Shown: positions 78 through 8,931, counted from the stretch's first letter. The stretch is DNA of 28,107 bases from an uncultured Candidatus Saccharibacteria bacterium (GCA_964595295.1 CAZQPT010000005.1:1-28107); one strand, 5' to 3'. A program made the numbers and translations. Notes: a model not told the origin generated them from the letters alone.

Positions 78-1607
78 TTAACGACGCGTTAATGGGGCGT
101 GGCCAAGTGGTAAGGCACCAGTTTTTGGTACTGGCATTCGGGGGTTCGAATCCCTCCGCCCCAGCCAATTTCCATTTTCGTTACATTCGGCTATTTTATT
201 GAACGGAAAACGTAATGTTGACCGAAGTAATTTACCACTAAGCTCTAAGTTCGAATGTATGAGTTTTAGCAAAGCTCGTTTTTTATCAATTCCGCCTTTT
301 TCGAATAGTTTGGGCGCATGTTTTGAGAGTTTTAACAGATGAGCTATGGTGCTTAAATTATCTTTCGCCATAAGTTCGATTTTATTTCTACGCTTGGTTA
401 AAGTTTCGATTTTGCTGGCATATTCTTGGCGCTTTTTCTCGTAAAATTCGGGGCTTATGTTGCCGTCTACTTTGTCGTCATACATGTTTTCAATTCTAAG
501 CTCGTACTTTTTGATCTCGGCGTTTAGTGTAGCCAGCCTATCGGCATGTTTACTACTGTCTTGTTTTTTGAGTGCTTTGACCTTCTGGCTGACTTCAATA
601 TAGGCCTGTTCGGGAATGGCAATTTTTCGTATGGTTTCTTTGAGTTGTTTGGTGAGGGCTTTTTCATTCACATACGACGCACCATGCTTGCCGCCAGTCT
701 GTGTGCAATGGCCATAGATGTACTTGCCGTCTTTCTTTTGTTCAAAGGTTATGCGGCGTCCACAGTCGGCGCAGGTGATCAGGCCTCGATAAGGGTACGG
801 CAGACCGGCATAAATAGCTGGTTTGACATTATAGCCCTCTCGCACCGCTTCAACTTTGGCAAATAGCTTTTCACTAATAATGCGCTCGTACTTGTGCGGA
901 TAGAGCTTGCCCTCAACGCACATCTCGCCTTTGTAAAAGGTGTTGGTTAGAATGCGGTAAATCTGGGCAGTGGCTAACTTCACACCGAACTCGCTTTTTA
1001 GATGTTTGCGGATTAGCTTCATGGAACTGACGCCGGTGGCATAATGCTTGTAAATCGCTTCGACTACTTGAGCTTCAAACTTATCTATTTCGATCCACTT
1101 TTTGCCGTCCACTTGTGTGACATTTTTATAGCCATATGGTGCTTCACCAGTCCATAGGCCGTCTCGACGCATTTGCTCAAACCGACGCCTGACGTTATCG
1201 CTAACGATTCTAGAGTAGTGTTCAGCGGTTGTTTCACCGATACCAAGCATAAACCACTCGTTGGCCGAACTTCTAGCGTTTAATTTTAGGTGGTCAGAAA
1301 TGAAATGTATCTCTATTTTGCCAGCATGACAGAGCTTTCGTAGTGCTCGTGTTTCGTCGGCGCTGCTATCTCTAGAAAAGCGGTCAATTTTGTCAAAGAC
1401 TACGGCAACTATATCTAGCTCTGCCTGAATACGGGTAATGATCTCGGCGAATTGTTTACGACCCTCTTTGAAAGCACTTTCTTGGAACTGGCATAGCAGA
1501 GAGCTGGTAAACTCTTTGTCGGCATAGTCTTGCAGCCGGTAGATTTGCGCTGGCAGGGCGTCCTTTTGGTCGTCGGTGGAAACTCTGGCTATGAGATATG
1601 CTTTCAT
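78..1607 (-). CDS. Large serine recombinase (resolvase catalytic domain, recombinase domain, zinc ribbon, coiled coil)
   Basis: Catalytic ARVSTDDQ, DKIDRFSR, GEAPYGY, CADCG...HC zinc ribbon, coiled coil. Start moved from GTG 1622 to ATG 1607 because AGAGGG sits just upstream and MKAYLIARVS is a typical N-terminus. The C-terminal WLGRRDSNPRMPVPKTGALPLGHAP is the antisense tRNA. Confidence 0.93.
   Translation of the reverse strand: MKAYLIARVSTDDQKDALPAQIYRLQDYADKEFTSSLLCQFQESAFKEGRKQFAEIITRIQAELDIVAVVFDKIDRFSRDSSADETRALRKLCHAGKIEIHFISDHLKLNARSSANEWFMLGIGETTAEHYSRIVSDNVRRRFEQMRRDGLWTGEAPYGYKNVTQVDGKKWIEIDKFEAQVVEAIYKHYATGVSSMKLIRKHLKSEFGVKLATAQIYRILTNTFYKGEMCVEGKLYPHKYERIISEKLFAKVEAVREGYNVKPAIYAGLPYPYRGLITCADCGRRITFEQKKDGKYIYGHCTQTGGKHGASYVNEKALTKQLKETIRKIAIPEQAYIEVSQKVKALKKQDSSKHADRLATLNAEIKKYELRIENMYDDKVDGNISPEFYEKKRQEYASKIETLTKRRNKIELMAKDNLSTIAHLLKLSKHAPKLFEKGGIDKKRALLKLIHSNLELSGKLLRSTLRFPFNKIAECNENGNWLGRRDSNPRMPVPKTGALPLGHAPLTRR
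93..167 (+). tRNA. tRNA-Gln (anticodon TTG), CCA encoded
   Basis: Acceptor stem TGGGGCG (93-99)/CGCCCCA (157-163); D arm GCCAAGTGGTAAGGC; anticodon arm CCAGT-TTTTGGT-ACTGG; T arm GGGG-TTCGAAT-CCC; ends GCCA at 164-167; 75 nt. Confidence 0.97.
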
Positions 1608-1646
1608 GTACCCTCTGCCCACCAGTTAGTTATGTTTATTATACCG

Positions 1647-1742
1647 TTAATCATCGTCATCTAGGCCTACTTCGTTGGCAATTTCTTGCAGTATCTGGAA
1701 ATACGCCAACCACGCGTCTAATTCGTCGGCTGGCATACCCAT
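1647..1742 (-). CDS. Unannotated 31-aa acidic ORF MGMPADELDAWLAYFQILQEIANEVGLDDDD
   Basis: Translated by hand. ATG 2 nt after the Rep stop, AGGTG SD-like motif upstream, TAA at 1647-1649. It fills the Rep-recombinase gap. Below the ORF-track length cutoff. Confidence 0.5.
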   Translation of the reverse strand: MGMPADELDAWLAYFQILQEIANEVGLDDDD

Positions 1743-1744
1743 TG

Positions 1745-2587
1745 CTACACCTGTTGCTGCTCTCTGGTTTGTTTGATGTTTTCTACCTGCTCACGAGTAA
1801 AGATGAGGGTTTTGCCCCACTCGTTGCGCCGTTCCCAGACAGGACTAAGGAACGTATACCAGTCGTCAGGGTTATATTCTTTGACTGGTCGGTTTAGCCC
1901 CGTTGATACCCAGTAACGTTTACGGCCACGAAATAGTGGCATTTCTTTGATTAGGTATTTTGTGAGGTAATTGGTGAGCTTTTGACGGTCTTGCGGCGTA
2001 TCTGTAATTTTGTAGACTTCATCGTATCCGAGCGTGTAGCTTGGTAGGTCGTAAACTAGGCGACCCTTCTTTCTAAGGTGTTTGTTGGTTTTTGGATTTA
2101 TTGCTGGCATAACTTTGCCTTTGTAGCCCTTGAATAGGGCGTGAAAGTGGAGTGCGCCGTCACCTTGTAGTTCAGCGACTATGACGTACTCAAAGCTGCC
2201 TTTACGCTTTTTCTCGTTATCGAACCACGTTTCCATTTGTTTGCGGCATTTTTCAATGTCATCTCGGTGCTTTGCAAATGTAAAGGTGACGTATAGCTCA
2301 AAGGTGTTGCAATGAATATAGCCAGTGAGCTGTTTTTTAGCCCGTCTGCGTGATCGCTCTATCGTGGTCTCACTACTTTCGTTTTGTTTAGCCTGCTTTT
2401 TGAGTTTTTTAATTTTCTTGGCTTCACCAATTAGTTCCATGCCAGTTAGCTTTTTATCTTTGGGGTAGTCGGGTACGTAGACTTTGACGTTGAAGTCGTC
2501 GTAGGTGGCTATAGCATGGATTCGATTAGTAGCGTCAACGTGATGTGTCTTGCCTAAAACTTGCCATAACTTGGTCAGGTTATTCAT
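1745..2587 (-). CDS. HUH rolling-circle replication initiator (Rep), two-tyrosine type
   Basis: Motif I YVTFTF, motif II HFHAL (HUH), motif III YLTKYLIK with two Tyr, C-terminal RKRYWVS; AGAGGG upstream of ATG. Confidence 0.82.
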   Translation of the reverse strand: MNNLTKLWQVLGKTHHVDATNRIHAIATYDDFNVKVYVPDYPKDKKLTGMELIGEAKKIKKLKKQAKQNESSETTIERSRRRAKKQLTGYIHCNTFELYVTFTFAKHRDDIEKCRKQMETWFDNEKKRKGSFEYVIVAELQGDGALHFHALFKGYKGKVMPAINPKTNKHLRKKGRLVYDLPSYTLGYDEVYKITDTPQDRQKLTNYLTKYLIKEMPLFRGRKRYWVSTGLNRPVKEYNPDDWYTFLSPVWERRNEWGKTLIFTREQVENIKQTREQQQV

Positions 2588-2605
2588 GACAATGACCCTC
2601 TATGT

Positions 2606-2677
2606 GTCCCGTTAATCAAGTTAAACGGGACTGCGGGCATACGCCCGCGCGGGTGCAGCGAGATTCGCTTAGCACCC
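2606..2677. other. Three back-to-back GC-rich hairpins upstream of rep (candidate replication origin or control structure)
   Basis: GTCCCGTT/AACGGGAC (2606-2631); GCGGGC/GCCCGC (2633-2648); GGGTGC-AGCGA/TCGCT-GCACCC (2651-2677). The hairpins are seen; the function is inferred. Confidence 0.55.
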
Positions 2678-2760
2678 ACGAGTTGCGGATTTCGGTTATT
2701 CCTTAATCCTAAATGCATTTTAAGTTCACTCAATTTCAATTCCCCCTTTCTTTTGGCAGT

Positions 2761-2785
2761 AAAAAACCACCTCATGTTTGGGTGG
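2761..2785 (-). terminator. Intrinsic terminator upstream of rep
   Basis: On the minus strand, a CCACC/GGTGG stem with a 9-nt loop is followed by six T. Confidence 0.65.
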
Positions 2786-2811
2786 CTTCATGCACGAAAA
2801 GAGGTTTCGTC

Positions 2812-2838
2812 TTAGATCATTAGTACGAGTTTGATCAT
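2812..2838 (-). CDS. Candidate 8-aa leader peptide MIKLVLMI
   Basis: Strong SD AAAGGAG (2850-2844), 5-nt spacer, ATG 2838, TAA 2814-2812. Too short to confirm from sequence. Confidence 0.3.
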   Translation of the reverse strand: MIKLVLMI

Positions 2839-3006
2839 TGGCGCTCCTTTGGTTCCATTAAAAAACAGACACCCAAACAGTTTAGTTTGTAGTGTCCGTC
2901 ACGTAGCGGCGCTCTTTTCTCTCCCGTCAGTTGCCTTATCGTACAACTGCTAATAGGTGACGCTCTTTCGTTTCTGGCATTAGTTTTGCATGCCGGACTG
3001 TAGCAT

Positions 3007-3035
3007 ATTGTACGACACCATGCTTATGGTTGCAA
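3007..3035 (-). promoter_or_regulatory. Leftward sigma70 promoter with a palindromic operator in its spacer
   Basis: TTGCAA-17 bp-TACAAT on the minus strand. The spacer contains ACCAT-GCTT-ATGGT (3017-3030). Confidence 0.55.
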
Positions 3036-3078
3036 GCAAAATCTGTGGTGAGGTGTAAGTCTATTGTGTTTGCCCTAC

Positions 3079-3148
3079 AATCCCCGCAGCAGCGGAATTG
3101 TAACACACGCCTAGCGGCGCGTGTTGTTGGGCTGTTTAAGCGGGGATT
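3079..3148. repeat. Long imperfect inverted repeat / nested hairpin
   Basis: AATCCCCGC (3079-3087)/GCGGGGATT (3140-3148) enclosing AACACACGCC-TAGC-GGCGCGTGTT (3102-3125). Confidence 0.6.
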
Positions 3149-3176
3149 TATAACGTCAGAACAGATGAAGGTCTAC

Positions 3177-3205
3177 TTGCATAATTTGCGAAAATGCTGT
3201 ATCAT
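3177..3205 (+). promoter_or_regulatory. Candidate sigma70 promoter for the sugar-enzyme cluster
   Basis: TTGCAT-17 bp-TATCAT, followed by SD TAAGGAG and ATG 3226. Confidence 0.55.
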
Positions 3206-3225
3206 ATTAAGATTAAGGAGTTAGT

Positions 3226-3774
3226 ATGCCCCCACTGAGAGAAACGCCTATTGTTGTAGATCGCCGCTTAGACGGTGAAACTTTGCATGAGTTGAGAGAT
3301 GTAGGGCATGGCCACCGAGTTAACGTTGTTGACGCAAGTTACGATATTCCTCGTGGAGCAAGGGTCGTAAAGTTCCCCGGTACTTCGGCTCAGGCACTTG
3401 AAGCCGTAGTGCGCATTATTCCTATTGAGGGTGAAAATAATGAATTGGGCTGTTCGCCTATTGTAGTTATGGACGCAGACGCTGAGCTTGAGAGCCAGTT
3501 TACTGACGACGGAACTATCAACTATGAGCATATAGCAAAACGGGCTGCGGCTACATTCTTTAAGGTTGGCACACAACTTAATGAACTAGAGATCGGCACA
3601 GAGGTTGACTGGCAAGACTTGCAATACCGATACCGCCAAGATAGCAGCGAGGGAGAGGGTTTCTATAGCATGGCAAATGGCTCACCTGAGACATCATTGT
3701 TTATTCGCACAATTGATGAGCTGCCTTTTGCGTGCGCCAGCGTAGTTGTTGGTCATTCTCAGCGTACAGCGTAG
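3226..3774 (+). CDS. RbsD/FucU-family protein (pyranase/mutarotase-like), divergent
   Basis: GHGHRVNVVDASY resembles the family GHGD-x5-DA motif; FYSMA...FIRTIDELPF resembles FY...IRTGE; SD AAGGAG. Confidence 0.65.
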   Translation: MPPLRETPIVVDRRLDGETLHELRDVGHGHRVNVVDASYDIPRGARVVKFPGTSAQALEAVVRIIPIEGENNELGCSPIVVMDADAELESQFTDDGTINYEHIAKRAAATFFKVGTQLNELEIGTEVDWQDLQYRYRQDSSEGEGFYSMANGSPETSLFIRTIDELPFACASVVVGHSQRTA

Positions 3775-3786
3775 TATACTCAAAAC

Positions 3787-4218
3787 ATGAAGTTCGCAGT
3801 TGCAGGAGACCATTACACCGTAGACCTAATGGAGACAGTGGTTAAATTCTTGAAACCAAAGAATATCGCTATACAGAATCTTGGCACTACCGACCCCAAT
3901 ACAAAGATCAGTCTACAAGAAATAATTCCAGCAGTTGCTAGTAAAGTGCAGTCGGGTGAAGTAGATTTCGGTATTCTTGCCTGTGGTACTGGTGTCGGGG
4001 TCGAGATCGGGGCTAATCGTTTTAAGGGTGTCAGGGCTTCACTTTGTAGGGACGCAGAGCAAGCAAAGAACGCACGTGTTTATGATGACGCAAATGTTTT
4101 ATGTCTAGGCTCGTGGTATAAAGATGATTTTAAGCAAATACTTAGCGCTTGGCTGGACAATAATTTCGACGGTAACGAAAAACGCATAAAAATGCTGAAG
4201 GATTTTGATAATTTATGA
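3787..4218 (+). CDS. RpiB/LacA/LacB-family sugar isomerase with an atypical active site
   Basis: GDH, LGT, GILACGTGVG, ANRFKGVRA, DANVLCLG. Several canonical RpiB residues are substituted, so no gene symbol is given. Confidence 0.88.
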   Translation: MKFAVAGDHYTVDLMETVVKFLKPKNIAIQNLGTTDPNTKISLQEIIPAVASKVQSGEVDFGILACGTGVGVEIGANRFKGVRASLCRDAEQAKNARVYDDANVLCLGSWYKDDFKQILSAWLDNNFDGNEKRIKMLKDFDNL

Positions 4219-4844
4219 GCGAAATTATAGATATATCCCTACCGATTAGCACCAACATGCCCATATATCCTGGCACTGGAGAAACTAAAATTACGCCTGT
4301 TATAAGTGCCAGTGGGAGTTCTGTACTATCAGAAATATCTATGACTTCACATGCTGGTACGCATATTGACGCCCCGAATCATGCACTCGATAGTGATCAG
4401 GGCATTGATAGCCTAGACCTTGAACTATTTTTTGGTAAGTGCCGCGTACTAGATTTAACCAAGTGCGAAATAGCAATTACCCAAGCTGATTTAGAAGCCT
4501 ACGCCGTTCAAGCAAACGAACGTTTGTTGTTTAAGACCAGCAATTCCGCACGTGGCTTTGAAACATTTTATGACGACTATATTTACCTAGACGGCCAAGC
4601 TGCACGATACTTAGGCAAGATTGGCGTTAAGCTCGTAGGTATAGATAGCCTATCTATCAAGCAACGGGGGTCAAAGGACAATACTGCCCATACAGCTTTG
4701 CTATCAAATGGCATACCAATTATTGAGGGGTTGAATCTGGCTCATGTTGAAGCAGGAGAATATACGCTTTGCGCACTACCACTGGCGTTTCAGGGTATTG
4801 ACGGTTCGCCAACTAGAGCCGTACTAATGCCAGTATCAGGTTGA
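4215..4844 (+). CDS. Cyclase-family metal-dependent hydrolase (kynurenine formamidase-like)
   Basis: HAGTHIDAPNH (HxGTHxDxPxH), GIDSLS, H...LL...IIEGL, DGSPTRAV; ATGA overlap with the upstream gene. Confidence 0.9.
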   Translation: MSEIIDISLPISTNMPIYPGTGETKITPVISASGSSVLSEISMTSHAGTHIDAPNHALDSDQGIDSLDLELFFGKCRVLDLTKCEIAITQADLEAYAVQANERLLFKTSNSARGFETFYDDYIYLDGQAARYLGKIGVKLVGIDSLSIKQRGSKDNTAHTALLSNGIPIIEGLNLAHVEAGEYTLCALPLAFQGIDGSPTRAVLMPVSG

Positions 4845-4870
4845 CAAAACAGAGGTGTGTGCGCTAAAAT
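4841..4870 (+). promoter_or_regulatory. Near-consensus promoter firing antisense into the NYN gene 3' end
   Basis: TTGACA (4841-4846), 18 bp, TAAAAT (4865-4870); no plus-strand ORF follows. Confidence 0.55.
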
Positions 4871-4876
4871 AACAAG

Positions 4877-4933
4877 TATCACCATGACCAGGCAGGCCTA
4901 AGGTTTCGACCGACCGCTACTCCTGGTCTTTTT
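4877..4933 (+). ncRNA. Candidate ~57-nt structured RNA antisense to the NYN gene end
   Basis: Outer stem GACCAGG (4886-4892)/CCTGGTC (4922-4928) plus TTTTT; inner GGT-TTCG-ACC tetraloop hairpin; upstream promoter. The start is estimated. Confidence 0.4.
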
Positions 4934-5440
4934 AGTTGGCGTATATTCTAGTTTTAGCCTTAACTGGTTGATCCTGACGATATCTTTGGTAAACCGACGC
5001 AATAACTTCGAGAAGTGATCATTTGGCACCATGACATGCAGCAGTTTGTCTTTTTCTTTCAGGTACTCGACCAAGCAGTGAAAATCACCGTCACCAGTAA
5101 CAATAATCGCTTGATCGTAGTTGTCGATAACCTTTGCGGCAGCATATAGCACTAACTCAGCGTCTACATTACCTTTAACCACTGTTTTGCCGTTCACTTT
5201 GTATTCTGTTGTGGGCTTAAATATGAGGTGATAGCCCATGTTTTGTAGCCTGTCATACAGTGATTCTTGTCCGGCCATTTGCCCGATAAACAAATAGGCC
5301 TTTTCTACGCCATACTTATTTTTGAGATACAGGCGAAACTTACGAAAATCCAGTGTCCAACCAGCACTTTTAACACCTAGGTTTAGGTTTTGGCTGTCAA
5401 TAAACGCATAGACAGTCTGGGGCTTATTTTTGTCACTCAT
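4898..5440 (-). CDS. NYN-domain (LabA/DUF88, PIN-like) putative ribonuclease
   Basis: FIDSQNL, KGNVDAEL and VTGDGDF acidic motifs. Confidence 0.9.
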   Translation of the reverse strand: MSDKNKPQTVYAFIDSQNLNLGVKSAGWTLDFRKFRLYLKNKYGVEKAYLFIGQMAGQESLYDRLQNMGYHLIFKPTTEYKVNGKTVVKGNVDAELVLYAAAKVIDNYDQAIIVTGDGDFHCLVEYLKEKDKLLHVMVPNDHFSKLLRRFTKDIVRINQLRLKLEYTPTKKTRSSGRSKP

Positions 5441-5526
5441 CTGCGCTCTATTATCTCACTGACGTTATCTTTAGGCCAGTCCGATCTGCACTATGCAACT
5501 ACCGTAAATAATGATAGCTTTAGTCT

Positions 5527-5805
5527 ATGGCTATAGATCACGAACAAGGACAAACACCCGAAGTTATCATAGGCGGCACATACGATCATTTCGAGGGTAC
5601 AAGCTACCGAGTGGACGCAGTTGTTACTCGTGCCGAAGATTACGAGCGAACACACCAGCTATCAGAGGACGTTATATACACCCAGCTAAATGACGGTGAA
5701 GTTAATCCAGCTGGCACTCAATATACTCGCTCAAAGACTCAATTCCTTTTCGGCACTGTCGAGGTCGAGGGCAACGAAGTTCCAATCTTCACTTTGCGAG
5801 CTTAG
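5527..5805 (+). CDS. DUF1653-like small protein
   Basis: GGTYDHFEGTSYRV...VIYTQL...YTRSKTQF...VEGNEVPIF matches the family pattern YxHFKGxxYxV...VVY...W.RP..MF...VPRF as recalled. Confidence 0.6.
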   Translation: MAIDHEQGQTPEVIIGGTYDHFEGTSYRVDAVVTRAEDYERTHQLSEDVIYTQLNDGEVNPAGTQYTRSKTQFLFGTVEVEGNEVPIFTLRA

Positions 5806-5831
5806 TTCAAAGTTGCGAAGCTCATCTACTA

Positions 5832-5842
5832 GCCCCAGCCAA
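5832..5842 (+). repeat. tRNA-Gln 3'-end copy GCCCCAGCCAA (att-like)
   Basis: Identical to 158-168; directly followed by a strong hairpin. Confidence 0.65.
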
Positions 5843-5885
5843 AGTAAAAGCACCATGTCCGTAAGGATTTGGTGCTTTTACTTTG
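5840..5885. terminator. Perfect 16-bp inverted repeat (terminator-like)
   Basis: CAAAGTAAAAGCACCA/TGGTGCTTTTACTTTG with an internal TCC-GTAA-GGA loop. Confidence 0.75.
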
Positions 5886-5904
5886 CATGAGTGGGTTAAC
5901 AGAA

Positions 5905-5994
5905 GGTTCGGTGGAGCGAGGACGCGCGCAGGAATGTATTCCGAGCACGCCGCAGTGGAAAAGCACGGAGTGCGCTACCCCTAATCCCCAGTCA
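5905..5994 (+). repeat. Miniature element A inside T-arm-like sequence, ending in a degenerate tRNA 3' end
   Basis: GGTTCG-GTGGAGCGAGGACGCGCGCAGGAATGTATTCCGAGCACGCCGCAG...GCGCT-ACCCCT. The following CCCTAATCCCCAGTCA (5979-5994) matches tRNA 152-167 at 12/16. Confidence 0.7.
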
Positions 5995-6044
5995 TTACGA
6001 ACTACATCTGTAGAACTTAGCCAGACTAAGTGAGAGTTAGAACC

Positions 6045-6070
6045 AAAGACTTCCTAGGAAGTCTTTTTTA
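6045..6070. terminator. Perfect palindrome plus T-tract
   Basis: AAAGACTTCCTAGGAAGTCTTT (6045-6066) followed by further T. Confidence 0.7.
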
Positions 6071-6086
6071 TTGCTACAATTAACAA

Positions 6087-6779
6087 ATGAGAAGACAGCA
6101 AGAGATCTGGCTGAAAGAGCATACGGATAAGGGCACCCTACCAACAATGGCAAACATAGAGCCAGCAAGCGGTGTCATCCTATTTAGCGATTGGCTCGTT
6201 AAAAATGGCACTCTCTTTTCTGGAAAAGCAGTTGATATCGGTTGCGGCAAGGGACGCAACAGTGTTTATTTGGCAACATTAGGGTTTGAAGTATGGGCGC
6301 TTGAGTATATTGAACCAGCTATTGAAGCCTCAAAGGAGCTTGCATGTAGCAGAAAGGTGACTAATGAGATCCATTTTGAGCTTACTGAAATAGATAAGCC
6401 TTGGAAAATTGAAGACAACTTTTTTGATGTAGCAGTTGACTCTTTTTCAAGTATCGATATCGAGACAAAGCAAGGTCGTGAAATTTGCAGAGATGAGATG
6501 CTAAGAACTCTTAAGCCCGGGGGATACGCTCTCGTTACCGCATGTTCCGCGGAGGATGAATGGGAAAAAGAACTAATTGCAAATCATCCAGGCTCAGAAC
6601 CGAACAGTACTGTTTGGCCACAGAATGGTAAATTTCAAAAAGACTATACAGAGTCAGAGCTGCGCAAATTCTACAGTGTATTTGAAGTAGTTGAGCTTAA
6701 GTCCATCAACAAACCAGCATTTAAGCTAGGTCGAGGCGGAACTGCTACCAATTTGTGGATGGTTTTGCGAAAGAAATAA
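6087..6779 (+). CDS. Class I SAM-dependent methyltransferase (TehB-like motif I)
   Basis: VDIGCGKGRNSVYLA, FDVAVD and LKPGG motifs. Confidence 0.9.
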   Translation: MRRQQEIWLKEHTDKGTLPTMANIEPASGVILFSDWLVKNGTLFSGKAVDIGCGKGRNSVYLATLGFEVWALEYIEPAIEASKELACSRKVTNEIHFELTEIDKPWKIEDNFFDVAVDSFSSIDIETKQGREICRDEMLRTLKPGGYALVTACSAEDEWEKELIANHPGSEPNSTVWPQNGKFQKDYTESELRKFYSVFEVVELKSINKPAFKLGRGGTATNLWMVLRKK

Positions 6780-6807
6780 GTTCTAACCTGGTACATTATA
6801 CTCAGCC

Positions 6808-6845
6808 ATACAAAAAAGACCTGCTTTATGTAGGTCTTTTTGTAT
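6808..6845. terminator. Bidirectional terminator hairpin
   Basis: ATACAAAAAAGACCT...AGGTCTTTTTGTAT, preceded by CTCAGCCA. Confidence 0.75.
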
Positions 6846-6859
6846 TGATTGAACAGAAC

Positions 6860-6933
6860 GGTTCGGCGTAGCGGCCGCAGAGAGCGTAGAAGCGACGAGG
6901 CAAAGCCGAGGGAAGCGCTATCCCTCCGCCCCA
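6860..6933 (+). repeat. Miniature element B splitting a tRNA-Gln T-arm copy; best attR candidate
   Basis: GGTTCG + 54-nt insert + ATCCCTCCGCCCCA, compared with the tRNA GGTTCG-A-ATCCCTCCGCCCCA. Confidence 0.7.
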
Positions 6934-6941
6934 AATATTGG

Positions 6942-7037
6942 GGTACAGTGAAGCAAGACTCGCACAGGAGTGTACATATAATTATATGTACACTACGAGC
7001 ACGCCGCAGCGCAAAAGCGCGAAGCACGCCATCCCCT
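6942..7037 (+). repeat. Miniature element C, homolog of A, with a 26-bp perfect palindrome
   Basis: Aligns by eye with 5905-5982 along its length (CAGGA.TGTA, CGAGCACGCCGCAG, AAAAGC.CG.AG). Palindrome AGTGTACATATAATTATATGTACACT at 6969-6994. Confidence 0.8.
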
Positions 7038-7105
7038 TATTTACGACTTTGCTAGCTTTTGTCTTTATTGCTATCGTCATAGCCATGATAGCCACAAGGT
7101 TGCTT

Positions 7106-7479: not shown

Positions 7480-8931
7480 TTAGATAATCGGCGACGGAGC
7501 ATAAGCGACAGCCTCAGGGTGTTTGTTAACGATGATCTGCACTTTATCCACGAAAGTAGTCACCTGGGAACGAGCGAGGCCGGTCAGCTCGAGCGGATCA
7601 GCAATGGCGTCCGTGAGGGTTTTTTTATCGACAGGCAAGTCAGGATCATTAGCTAGTCTATCAAACAGATCATTCTCGGCAGTGCCTTTTTCGCGCATTT
7701 CTAAGGCCACTGCAACAGCGTGTTTCTTAATAAGCGCGTGAGCTTCTTCTCGCCCCATACCGGCTTTAATACAGGACATTAAGACCATGGTAGTCATCAA
7801 GAAGGGGAGGAAGCGTTGTAGCTCTTTGTCGATAACCGCTGGGTAAGCGCCGAAATTATCCAGAATAGTTAACGTGGTCAGGAAAATGCCATCGGTAGCA
7901 AAAAACGCGTCAGGAATAATAACCCTACGGGCGGCCGAGCAGCTAACATCGCCCTCATTTGACTGATTAGACGCCAGCTCACCGGCCGTGGTGACATGCC
8001 CCGACAAAATAGCGCTCAGGCTACGAACCCGCTCGGATTTAGCGGCATTCATTTTATGAGGCATAGCGTTGGAGCCGACCTGACCAGGTTTAAAGCCTTC
8101 GGTTGCCAGTTCACGACCAGCCATATCTCTCAAGCAGTTCGTAAAGTTAACCGGACCAGTCACCGACTGTTTTAGGGCGGTAACTACATCAAAGTCCATG
8201 GAGCGAGGATAAACCTGTCCAACGCTACCCAAAATATTAGAAAAACCCAGCGCTTTAGCGATACGAGCTTCAAGCTCCGCGACCTTAACTGGGTCGCCTT
8301 CAAATAAATCGAGCATATCTTGTTGTGTACCGACCGGGCCTTTTATTCCTCGCAAAGCATATGAATCTCGCAGAGCAGATATTCTTTGGTATCCACCAAG
8401 CAATTCTTCGCCGTAGTTCGCGAAGCGCTTACCCAAAGTAATCGTTTGAGCTGCCACGTTATGAGTTCGCCCAACCATGGCCAGGCCACTGTATTGAATG
8501 GCCCTGGCGGCAAAACGATCAAGTGTCGCCACCGCGCGATCACGAATAATATCCAGGCCGCTTAATATCTGGTACTGCTCGATGTTTTCGGTTAGATCAC
8601 GGGAGGTCATGCCTTGCTGTATATACTGGTGCCCGGCCATCATGTTAAACTCTTCAATCCTCGAATTTACGTCGTGATGACTAACTTTTTCGCGTGCCCT
8701 AATGGACGCCAGGTCGATGTCCGACTGAGCTGTTACGTAATCGTTTATCGCGGCTTTCGGTATGTTTAAGCCCAGGTCGGCCTGAGCCCGCATGATCTCG
8801 ATCCACAAACCGCGTTCCATATAAATTTTGGCTTCGTCGGAGAAGACCGCGACCATCTGCTTGCTAGGGTAGCGACTAGCCAGAACATTTACCGGTGGCT
8901 GTACGTCACCGGCATAATCAAACTTAGTCAT
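7480..8931 (-). CDS. purB: Adenylosuccinate lyase
   Basis: LASRY N-terminus, GRTHNVAAQTITLGKR, signature GSNAMPHKMN; SD GGAGG. Confidence 0.93.
   Translation of the reverse strand: MTKFDYAGDVQPPVNVLASRYPSKQMVAVFSDEAKIYMERGLWIEIMRAQADLGLNIPKAAINDYVTAQSDIDLASIRAREKVSHHDVNSRIEEFNMMAGHQYIQQGMTSRDLTENIEQYQILSGLDIIRDRAVATLDRFAARAIQYSGLAMVGRTHNVAAQTITLGKRFANYGEELLGGYQRISALRDSYALRGIKGPVGTQQDMLDLFEGDPVKVAELEARIAKALGFSNILGSVGQVYPRSMDFDVVTALKQSVTGPVNFTNCLRDMAGRELATEGFKPGQVGSNAMPHKMNAAKSERVRSLSAILSGHVTTAGELASNQSNEGDVSCSAARRVIIPDAFFATDGIFLTTLTILDNFGAYPAVIDKELQRFLPFLMTTMVLMSCIKAGMGREEAHALIKKHAVAVALEMREKGTAENDLFDRLANDPDLPVDKKTLTDAIADPLELTGLARSQVTTFVDKVQIIVNKHPEAVAYAPSPII

Follow-up and report, generated by a model that had tools for sequence, protein, structure and literature searches.

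The window analysed here is a stretch of 28,107 nucleotides from an uncultured Candidatus Saccharibacteria bacterium (GCA_964595295.1 CAZQPT010000005.1:1-28107), and it contains an integrated element of 5,674 bp at positions ~169-5842, including ~2.6 kb of cargo. The window is an entire contig (C5) of the assembly, which comprises 808 kb in 70 contigs and is 77% complete. We consider it probable that the element is an intact, plasmid-like integrative element of Saccharibacteria that replicates by the rolling-circle mechanism. It combines a large serine recombinase (LSR) with a replication initiator (Rep) of the inovirus type, and it appears to be a real and intact member of a widespread Saccharibacteria family with this combination, of which our literature search found no published description. 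The initial annotation of this DNA had proposed a minimal integrate-and-replicate module of ~3 kb. The pairing of an LSR with an HUH initiator of the type used by single-stranded DNA (ssDNA) phages, without virion or conjugation genes, has stood, but the size has not, since the element with its cargo measures 5.7 kb. The features on which this reading is based are listed below, with positions counted from the first nucleotide of the window (ORF, open reading frame).

93-167, plus strand: tRNA-Gln(TTG), the host target gene, whose 3' end is the B arm of attB (ARAGORN; Rfam tRNA, 63.9 bits).
158-168, plus strand: attL core GCCCCAGCCAA, made up of the final 10 nt of the tRNA and one further nucleotide, with the crossover somewhere inside.
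78-1622, minus strand: LSR in its integrated form, 514 aa (Pfam domains and phrog_95).
1647-1742, minus strand: conserved acidic ORF of 31 aa between rep and the LSR gene (tblastn).
1745-2587, minus strand: Rep, an HUH rolling-circle replication initiator of 280 aa with two catalytic tyrosines, YLTKY (PF23343, phrog_3419).
2584-2775, minus strand: ORF of 63 aa from the conserved family fam5, which runs up to the rep start and shares bases with the origin hairpin.
2606-2631, minus strand: putative double-strand origin immediately upstream of rep, with an 8-bp stem GTCCCGTT/AACGGGAC and the loop ACTTGAT running from 2621 to 2615.
5731-5831, minus strand: severed 3' part of the LSR gene with its reading frame and a stop at 5731; the attP P arm (~5805-5831) is within it.
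5832-5842, plus strand: attR core GCCCCAGCCAA, an exact copy of the 3'-terminal 11 bases of the tRNA as at 158-168.
5840-5885, plus strand: hairpin adjoining the attR core and followed by a T-rich tail (inverted repeat I1; arms of 21 nt, 90% complementarity).

Just two exact copies of the 11-bp core GCCCCAGCCAA are present in the window, at 158-168 and 5832-5842. Identity between the two att sites amounts to these 11 bp, with no longer duplication of the tRNA, as is typical of the short att sites of large serine recombinases. Directly to the left of the right-hand copy, the minus strand translates as WLG-LVDELRNFEL... and reaches a stop at 5731. This P arm translation (WLGLVDEL...) matches the C-termini of the LSRs of two relatives, one a circle (L101) and one that looks like a circularly permuted form (L103), and it also matches the attR of 20 integrated relatives. 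These 20 carry at their far ends the core together with tail coding of the form WLG[LI][VI]D.FQE, which is found in L101 and L103 as well. Because the exact core occurs twice and homologous P arm and tail coding lies next to the right copy, we place the element at ~169-5842; the ~3 kb extent first assigned to it (168-3150) was wrong.

The right boundary was found by comparison with the circular relatives, whose attP contains the same core, TTGGCTGGGG. A search for the P arm as an inverted repeat, starting from the sequence beside the tRNA, returned chance-level matches only. A displaced tRNA fragment was also considered as the right boundary and rejected: none longer than 14 nt was present, and the 14-nt match at 6920-6933 is outside the element, in a GC-rich repeat or relic. 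Beyond attR, the hairpin at 5840-5885 is probably the original terminator of the tRNA gene, at which host DNA resumes. The left flank and the tRNA are shared with a same-genus genome (G001), which lacks both rep and the LSR gene.

The LSR has a Resolvase domain (PF00239, 2.2e-16) at residues 9-155, the N-terminal catalytic domain with the active-site serine, in which the RVSTDDQ motif is present, followed in its C-terminal part by Recombinase (PF07508, 2.7e-8) and Zn_ribbon_recom (PF13408, 9.5e-7), both over the cutoffs. It matches the PHROGs integrase family phrog_95 at 6.6e-60, and the nearest NCBIfam models are XisF and Ccr; a sequence search of solved structures gave no match. The true start is likely the ATG at 1607. 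On the chromosome the protein ends with ...NWLG-RRDSNPRMPVPKTGALPLGHAPLTRR, and the codons past ...NWLG (below ~169) are translated from antisense tRNA sequence. In the reconstructed circle it would end with ...NWLG-LVDELRNFELSSQSEDWNFVALDLDSAEKELSL, a native tail of 37 residues. The LSRs of L101 and L103 end with ...(S/T)WLG(I/L)V... over DNA reading TTGGCTGGGG-TAGTGG..., in which the tRNA-Gln 3' end is present as its reverse complement; attP therefore falls within the 3'-terminal part of the LSR gene in both relatives, as it does in the reconstructed junction of the window. Integration thus exchanges the last ~37 residues of the LSR for tRNA-antisense sequence and leaves all recognised domains intact.

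Rep scores 42 bits against PF23343 (REP_ORF2-G2P; cutoff 27.8) and matches phrog_3419, 'rolling circle DNA replication initiation', at 2e-18. Across 21 Rep homologues, TFT (T101-F102-T103), HFH (H147-F148-H149) and Y207/K210/Y211, which represent motifs I-III, are invariant, and the two-tyrosine motif YLTKY pointed out in the initial annotation is real. An AlphaFold model of Rep (pLDDT 85.5) was compared with known structures. VIA-align matched it to SIRV1 ORF119 at Z 8.6, with a root-mean-square deviation of 3.0 over 106 residues, and to the Helitron HUH domain at Z 7.1; the Rep domains of parvo-, circo- and nanoviruses were weaker matches at Z ~5. All Foldseek E-values were >0.01, and a sequence search of solved structures found no match for Rep. 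The predicted structure is that of an HUH endonuclease. The profile and structure searches proposed earlier thus gave an HUH initiator, and Rep appears to be replicative rather than of the transposase type, as it groups with inovirus-like initiators and is accompanied by a conserved origin hairpin. Rep is single-copy in the genome of the window, and its closest homologue (P0002, 78% identity) lies on a 51-kb contig.

Pattern scans recovered 38 loci in species genomes, nearly all of them Saccharibacteria, together with 9 IMG/VR contigs and 80 metagenome loci. Among 401 genomes of the class, a profile search recovered the Rep family in 26, and a single-protein search did not find Rep in 60 relatives (tallies over family genomes, namely these 60 relatives and the 40 genomes used below for two cargo proteins, include the unpublished G002 and G015, on which no individual claim depends). 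Two classes of loci share one Rep family: class A, with an LSR (53 loci), and class B, of the inovirus type (52 loci). In class A, a small ORF is followed by Rep, a tiny ORF and the LSR, and at its 3' end the LSR gene overlaps an antisense tRNA. This Rep-LSR-antisense tRNA layout is present at 14/38 species-genome loci and ~40/80 metagenome loci, and the targets are tRNAs of six types (Gln-CTG, Gln-TTG, Asn, Trp, Pro and Gly). The initial annotation had noted that rep, the 31-aa ORF and the recombinase are co-oriented, which is correct (LSR 78-1622, ORF 1647-1742 and Rep 1745-2587, all on the minus strand), and had suggested a search for the same synteny at other tRNAs. The synteny is kept in ~53 loci at the six tRNA types, so rep and the LSR gene are co-inherited in relatives. 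In the Rep tree, 49 of the 53 class-A Reps fall into one clade (SH-aLRT 96) with no class-B or Zot-linked Rep inside; because class-A Reps form a clade of their own, Rep and LSR are considered stably linked.

Circular forms of the family were also detected. L101 is a 6,034-bp contig whose 127-bp terminal repeat gives a circle of 5,907 bp; rep is present, and the LSR ORF crosses the contig junction. In L103 the LSR is at the contig start and rep runs off the contig end, with no terminal repeat, which gives it the appearance of a circularly permuted relative. A third contig, L088, encodes a divergent serine recombinase and has a terminal repeat of 41 bp. Element sizes range from 3.47 to 8.26 kb across the family with differing cargo. 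The 3.47-kb members of the L015 group have no cargo, and the cargo of other members includes a ThsB-type TIR protein, a trypsin-like peptidase and a DpnII-like nuclease (L101), SocA/Panacea (L103), a reverse transcriptase with DUF5677 (L022), a NERD nuclease (L083), and ThiF with DUF6791 and a GDSL lipase (L082). In one metagenome contig (L102, Ga0209511_1000425), three attR-like cores at 2297, 3542 and 4195 are located upstream of a single LSR-Rep element at tRNA-Gln(TTG), and LSR-tail coding is retained only at the core at 3542. The triple cores suggest that elements or relics have accumulated in tandem at a single tRNA.

The putative origin was analysed across both classes. The heptamer ACTTGAT was singled out by a k-mer count upstream of rep in 31 non-redundant class-A loci. 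It occurs within -400 to +100 of the rep start in 47/53 class-A and 28/52 class-B loci, and in class A it is mostly no more than ~70 nt from the rep start. It always lies between complementary arms whose sequence varies by element. RNAalifold returned no structure for the origin hairpins, the 5' arms being offset in the alignment, and was replaced by a count of stems against shuffled controls: perfect Watson-Crick stems of at least 7 bp were present in 62 of 78 unique ACTTGAT contexts, with 60 different stem sequences, compared with 3 of 1,560 shuffled controls. The hairpin of the window has a DNA fold of -7.8 kcal/mol (z -2.9). Double-strand origins of rolling-circle replicons classically look like this, with a conserved loop in covarying stems beside an HUH gene, and the ACTTGAT loop is the putative nick site for Rep. 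The nick site of phiX174 gene A, CAACTTG/ATA (the slash marking the cut), resembles ACTTGAT; we treat the resemblance as a lead and not as a test.

The class-B loci are inovirus-like genomes that encode, besides Rep, a Zot-like ATPase (PF05707 at 8e-6, phrog_197), a pIII-like protein and small coat-like proteins, and they include circular contigs of 4.6-5.3 kb as well as Saccharibacteria prophages, for example in Nanosynbacter TM7-008. L116, L117, L122, L124 and L127, which are circular with 127-bp terminal repeats, and L023-L046 are complete inovirus-like genomes of 4.6-5.3 kb or prophages of Saccharibacteria, with the gene order coat, f49, pIII-like, f10, Zot and Rep. A protein of ~310 aa without a Pfam match (f8) occurs at the prophage border and has a homologue in the genome of the window (C3:143-1063). 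L029 contains two identical Rep matches 4.5 kb apart (positions 8001 and 12504), probably a tandem inovirus-like prophage.

None of the inovirus structural genes was detected in the element. Neither tblastn with 40+ Zot sequences nor the Zot profile detected a Zot/pI-like ATPase, whether in the element or anywhere else in the assembly, and no homologue of the coat or pIII-like families f9, f49, f3 and f10 was found by tblastn, the remaining ORFs of the element being otherwise accounted for. No relaxase, oriT or FtsK-like Tra domain was detected in the ORFs of 169-5842. The earlier statement that capsid, relaxase-coupling, conjugation and Zot-like genes are missing was therefore borne out by Pfam, PHROGs, NCBIfam, PADLOC and tblastn with the inovirus families. 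As no locus among 122 combines an LSR with Zot, and the class-A Rep clade contains no Zot-linked Rep, we do not regard the element as a virus.

The following mechanism is proposed from these data. The free circle would replicate by the rolling-circle mechanism, with Rep nicking ACTTG/AT in the hairpin origin upstream of its own gene, as the motif and the structure suggest. The recombination partners used by the LSR would be attP, located in the final ~40 codons of the LSR gene, and the ~10 nt at the 3' end of a target tRNA gene, which in the window is tRNA-Gln(TTG); the tRNA sequence would stay unchanged. Integration would detach the native LSR tail, leaving it 5.6 kb away at attR, and residues from the antisense tRNA would take its place; excision would bring back the full LSR gene. 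The small ORF, origin, rep, 31-aa ORF and LSR gene form a core that does not vary across the family, and the segment from attR to the core is a variable, swappable cargo bay. The data establish the identities of the genes, the boundaries, the placement of attP in the LSR gene, the conservation of the origin, the distribution of the family and its circular forms; the nicking activity of Rep, the recombination activity of the LSR and the current mobility of this copy are predictions from sequence. A further, doubtful extension is that the tail swap is a built-in directionality switch of the serine integrase, with the native WLG-LVD... tail favouring integration and the tRNA-antisense tail being disabled or excision-biased, and that cargo is shuttled among Saccharibacteria mainly by this family, which might travel in inovirus particles. 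If this were true, direction control would be written in the att site without a separate recombination directionality factor (RDF), a bacterial serine-recombinase counterpart of the archaeal 'suicidal' integrases.

The remaining features of the element are as follows.

2776-3225, no strand assigned: non-coding spacer that separates the cargo from the replication module, with no ORF family.
3226-4844, plus strand: three-gene cargo operon (Pfam, NCBIfam).
3226-3774, plus strand: 182-aa cargo protein with a weak RbsD/FucU match.
3787-4218, plus strand: RpiB/LacAB-family sugar-phosphate isomerase (Pfam, NCBIfam).
4215-4844, plus strand: arylformamidase-like 'cyclase' (Pfam, NCBIfam).
4898-5440, minus strand: NYN-domain (LabA-like) nuclease (Pfam NYN 2e-17; PADLOC NYN 6e-9).
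5527-5805, plus strand: DUF1653 protein of 92 aa (Pfam 25.9 bits, cutoff 23.5), overlapping the detached LSR tail on the opposite strand.

The 31-aa ORF is found at the same position in L012, L019, L067, L070, L071 and L160 with 41-77% identity (tblastn) and is a candidate directionality or regulatory factor. Members of fam5, the family of the 63-aa ORF, immediately precede rep in L014, L018, L019, L022 and many metagenome loci; the ORF has no Pfam or PHROG match and, like the 31-aa ORF, is a candidate RDF. The spacer shows a displaced-strand ssDNA fold with z -2.4, which makes it a weak candidate for a promoter or single-strand-origin region.

The RpiB of the element is 30-37% identical to the core RpiB carried by 37/40 family genomes, the same-genus genome included, and falls below the NCBIfam RpiB equivalog cutoff (108.5 vs 138.65 bits). 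The 182-aa protein occurs in 3/40 other family genomes. Because the RpiB is divergent from the core RpiB and the 182-aa gene is rare in the family, the cargo genes look imported. A paralogue of the 182-aa protein with ~50% identity is encoded at contig C56:3009-3560 behind a similar upstream sequence, and C56 follows C5 in the assembly graph.

Several points weigh against an intact integrative element. Excision, the circular junction and the empty site of this copy are predicted from the assembled sequence. The empty attB was not recovered, as the contig of G001 stops inside the T-loop of tRNA-Gln(TTG) and no contig continues it, and only 92 bp of the window's own contig precede the tRNA, beginning with a 55-nt overlap with contig C2 in the assembly graph. 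Pairwise distances of Rep and LSR are weakly congruent (rho 0.11, with 35/999 permutations as high), and because of this weak correlation the Rep and LSR modules are considered to reassort within the family. No known RDF family was matched in Pfam or PHROGs, and because the tail of the integrated LSR is not the native one, excision by this form is putative. The only sign of a single-strand origin is the fold of the spacer. No second RpiB-like gene was detected in the 77%-complete assembly; with the sole RpiB in the element, the sugar genes could be chromosomal and the boundary a relic, a reading that is disfavoured because of the 11-bp core and the homologous P arm.

The main rival explanation is that the element is a satellite of the class-B filamentous phages of Saccharibacteria: the excised element would make ssDNA, and the coat and Zot of a helper inovirus would package and export it, as with RS1/TLC and CTX-phi/fs2 in Vibrio. 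This would account for the Rep family and ACTTGAT hairpin origin, which are the same as in the Zot- and coat-bearing inovirus-like genomes, and for the lack of transfer genes in the element; rolling-circle replication gives ssDNA, the substrate packaged by filamentous virions. However, a search for helper phages, which the initial annotation had recommended, found the Zot profile in only 1 of 15 genomes carrying LSR-Rep elements and not in the 77%-complete genome of the window, although episomal helpers would escape such a search. The LSR-linked Reps form an old clade apart from the Zot-linked Reps, no packaging signal has been identified (none is defined for these phages), and free circles such as L101 have defence cargo typical of plasmids or islands. 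We therefore judge the satellite unlikely. With respect to the first label of satellite or reduced inovirus, the Rep and origin family is indeed common to the element and the inoviruses, but the label itself is disfavoured by the rarity of Zot among the carriers and the separate Rep clade.

Two other explanations were weighed. An element limited to 168-3150, with the genes from 3226 on being ordinary chromosome, is very unlikely. It agrees with the cargo-free 3.47-kb members found elsewhere (L015 group) and with sugar genes that look metabolic and not mobile, but no att core or P-arm-like sequence is present near 2800-3225, whereas an exact core and a homologous P arm are present at 5805-5842; moreover, the RpiB is a divergent xenologue and the 182-aa gene is rare in the family. 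A decayed inovirus prophage, having lost its structural genes and lying beside an LSR and neighbours that are unrelated chromosomal or island genes, is largely refuted and can be given hardly any credence. The Rep family is used by inovirus-like genomes, and att-site relics occur nearby and in G001. Nevertheless, an intact five-part core with open frames recurs in ~53 loci, it always adjoins a tRNA 3' end with matched att cores, the circular forms hold the LSR and no virion genes, and no locus has both an LSR and Zot. An intact integrative rolling-circle element thus remains the preferred reading.

Some further observations concern the surroundings of the integration site. Contig C2 ends with the same bases as positions 1-55 of the window, a k=55 junction in the assembly graph that lies 38 bp upstream of the tRNA, and the syntenic G001 contig C31 ends exactly in the T-loop of the same tRNA; the breaks of both assemblies at tRNA-Gln may reflect population heterogeneity. 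A GC-rich intergenic repeat of ~85 nt, starting GAACAGAAGGTTCGG..., has copies at 5896-5985, 6853-6935 and 6995-7040 and was not called a tRNA by ARAGORN or Rfam. In G001, matching copies are present in at least 6 places, one of them immediately behind tRNA-Gln(CTG). The second copy in the window ends with the 14-nt stretch at 6920-6933, an exact copy of the T-stem/acceptor 3' part of tRNA-Gln (ATCCCTCCGCCCCA), which may be an older att or tRNA relic. If so, 5843-6933, with a methyltransferase-like ORF of 230 aa at 6087-6779, would be a second, older cassette behind the same tRNA. Contig C28 of G001 (L066) has an attR-like relic, TGGCTGGG-CTAGTAGACGAGCTTCGG, at 696, 805 bp from the 3' end of tRNA-Gln(CTG) at 1501. 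It is nearly identical to the P arm of the window with one G fewer, in a genome without LSR or rep, and looks like the scar of a lost element from the same lineage.

Saccharibacteria and other members of the Candidate Phyla Radiation have tiny genomes, and to our knowledge few mobile elements have been described in them. The elements reported here would represent a compact, apparently active family that unites a replicon, a serine integrase directed at tRNAs and a cargo bay and that moves defence and metabolic genes among Saccharibacteria. A small origin with its Rep, together with an integrase whose chromosomal target is conserved, could provide genetic-tool parts for organisms that are hard to handle. 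For serine-integrase biology, the family adds enzymes that recognise tRNA 3' ends and a natural case of an integrase C-terminus changing with the integration state. For the evolution of mobile elements, one Rep and origin module joins a plasmid-like element and filamentous phages.

The element resembles several known systems. The integrative and conjugative elements of actinomycetes (AICEs) pSAM2, SLP1 and pMEA300 integrate and use rolling-circle replication (PMC2440964), and integrative mobilizable elements (IMEs) of Firmicutes combine a serine integrase with a rolling-circle replication (RCR)-type protein (PMC5704250, PMC5357655). Like the element described here, AICEs and IMEs are small, integrate site-specifically and often at tRNA 3' ends, form a circle by excision, and have an HUH/RCR initiator and variable cargo. 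However, AICEs use a tyrosine integrase with Xis and an FtsK-like Tra for conjugation, and IMEs use a relaxase or oriT to hijack conjugation, all of which are missing here. In addition, the Rep of the element is of the inovirus/ORF2-G2P type (PF23343), and its LSR targets the tips of tRNAs with attP within its own gene.

TM7 prophages were previously screened with an 'inovirus detector', and the TM7 study does not mention such elements (PMC7739484). The inoviruses (Tubulavirales, including L023-L046, L049-L057 and L112-L146) share with the element the Rep family and the ACTTGAT hairpin origin immediately upstream of rep. In contrast, the element lacks Zot/pI, coat, pIII-like and pVI-like proteins and has an LSR instead, and its Rep is from a separate clade that has an additional N-terminal region. 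RS1 and TLC-phi, satellite filamentous phages of Vibrio cholerae, consist of Rep and small ORFs without morphogenesis genes and are chromosomally integrated; they integrate via the host XerCD at dif, and their helper dependence has been demonstrated. The element differs from them in using an LSR at a tRNA, and no helper was found by the Zot profile in 14 of 15 carrier genomes of its family.

The position of attP has a parallel in the SSV-type 'suicidal' integrases of archaeal viruses and plasmids, in which attP lies within the integrase ORF, an arrangement described as 'so far restricted to archaea' (PMC7253208). In both systems integration alters the integrase gene and a tRNA gene is the target. 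SSV-type integrases are tyrosine recombinases, whereas the enzyme here is a bacterial serine recombinase of which only the last ~37 codons are exchanged. The intP/intX of phage Mx8 is a further case of attP within an integrase gene. Finally, the tycheposons of Prochlorococcus, 910/937 of which use tyrosine recombinases (bioRxiv 10.1101/2020.12.28.424599), are likewise small, cargo-carrying integrative elements at tRNA genes of streamlined genomes, with replication genes and stacking at one tRNA. Their replication genes are primases, helicases and polymerases and not an HUH Rep, and by analogy tycheposons can be viewed as the ecological counterpart of the Saccharibacteria elements.

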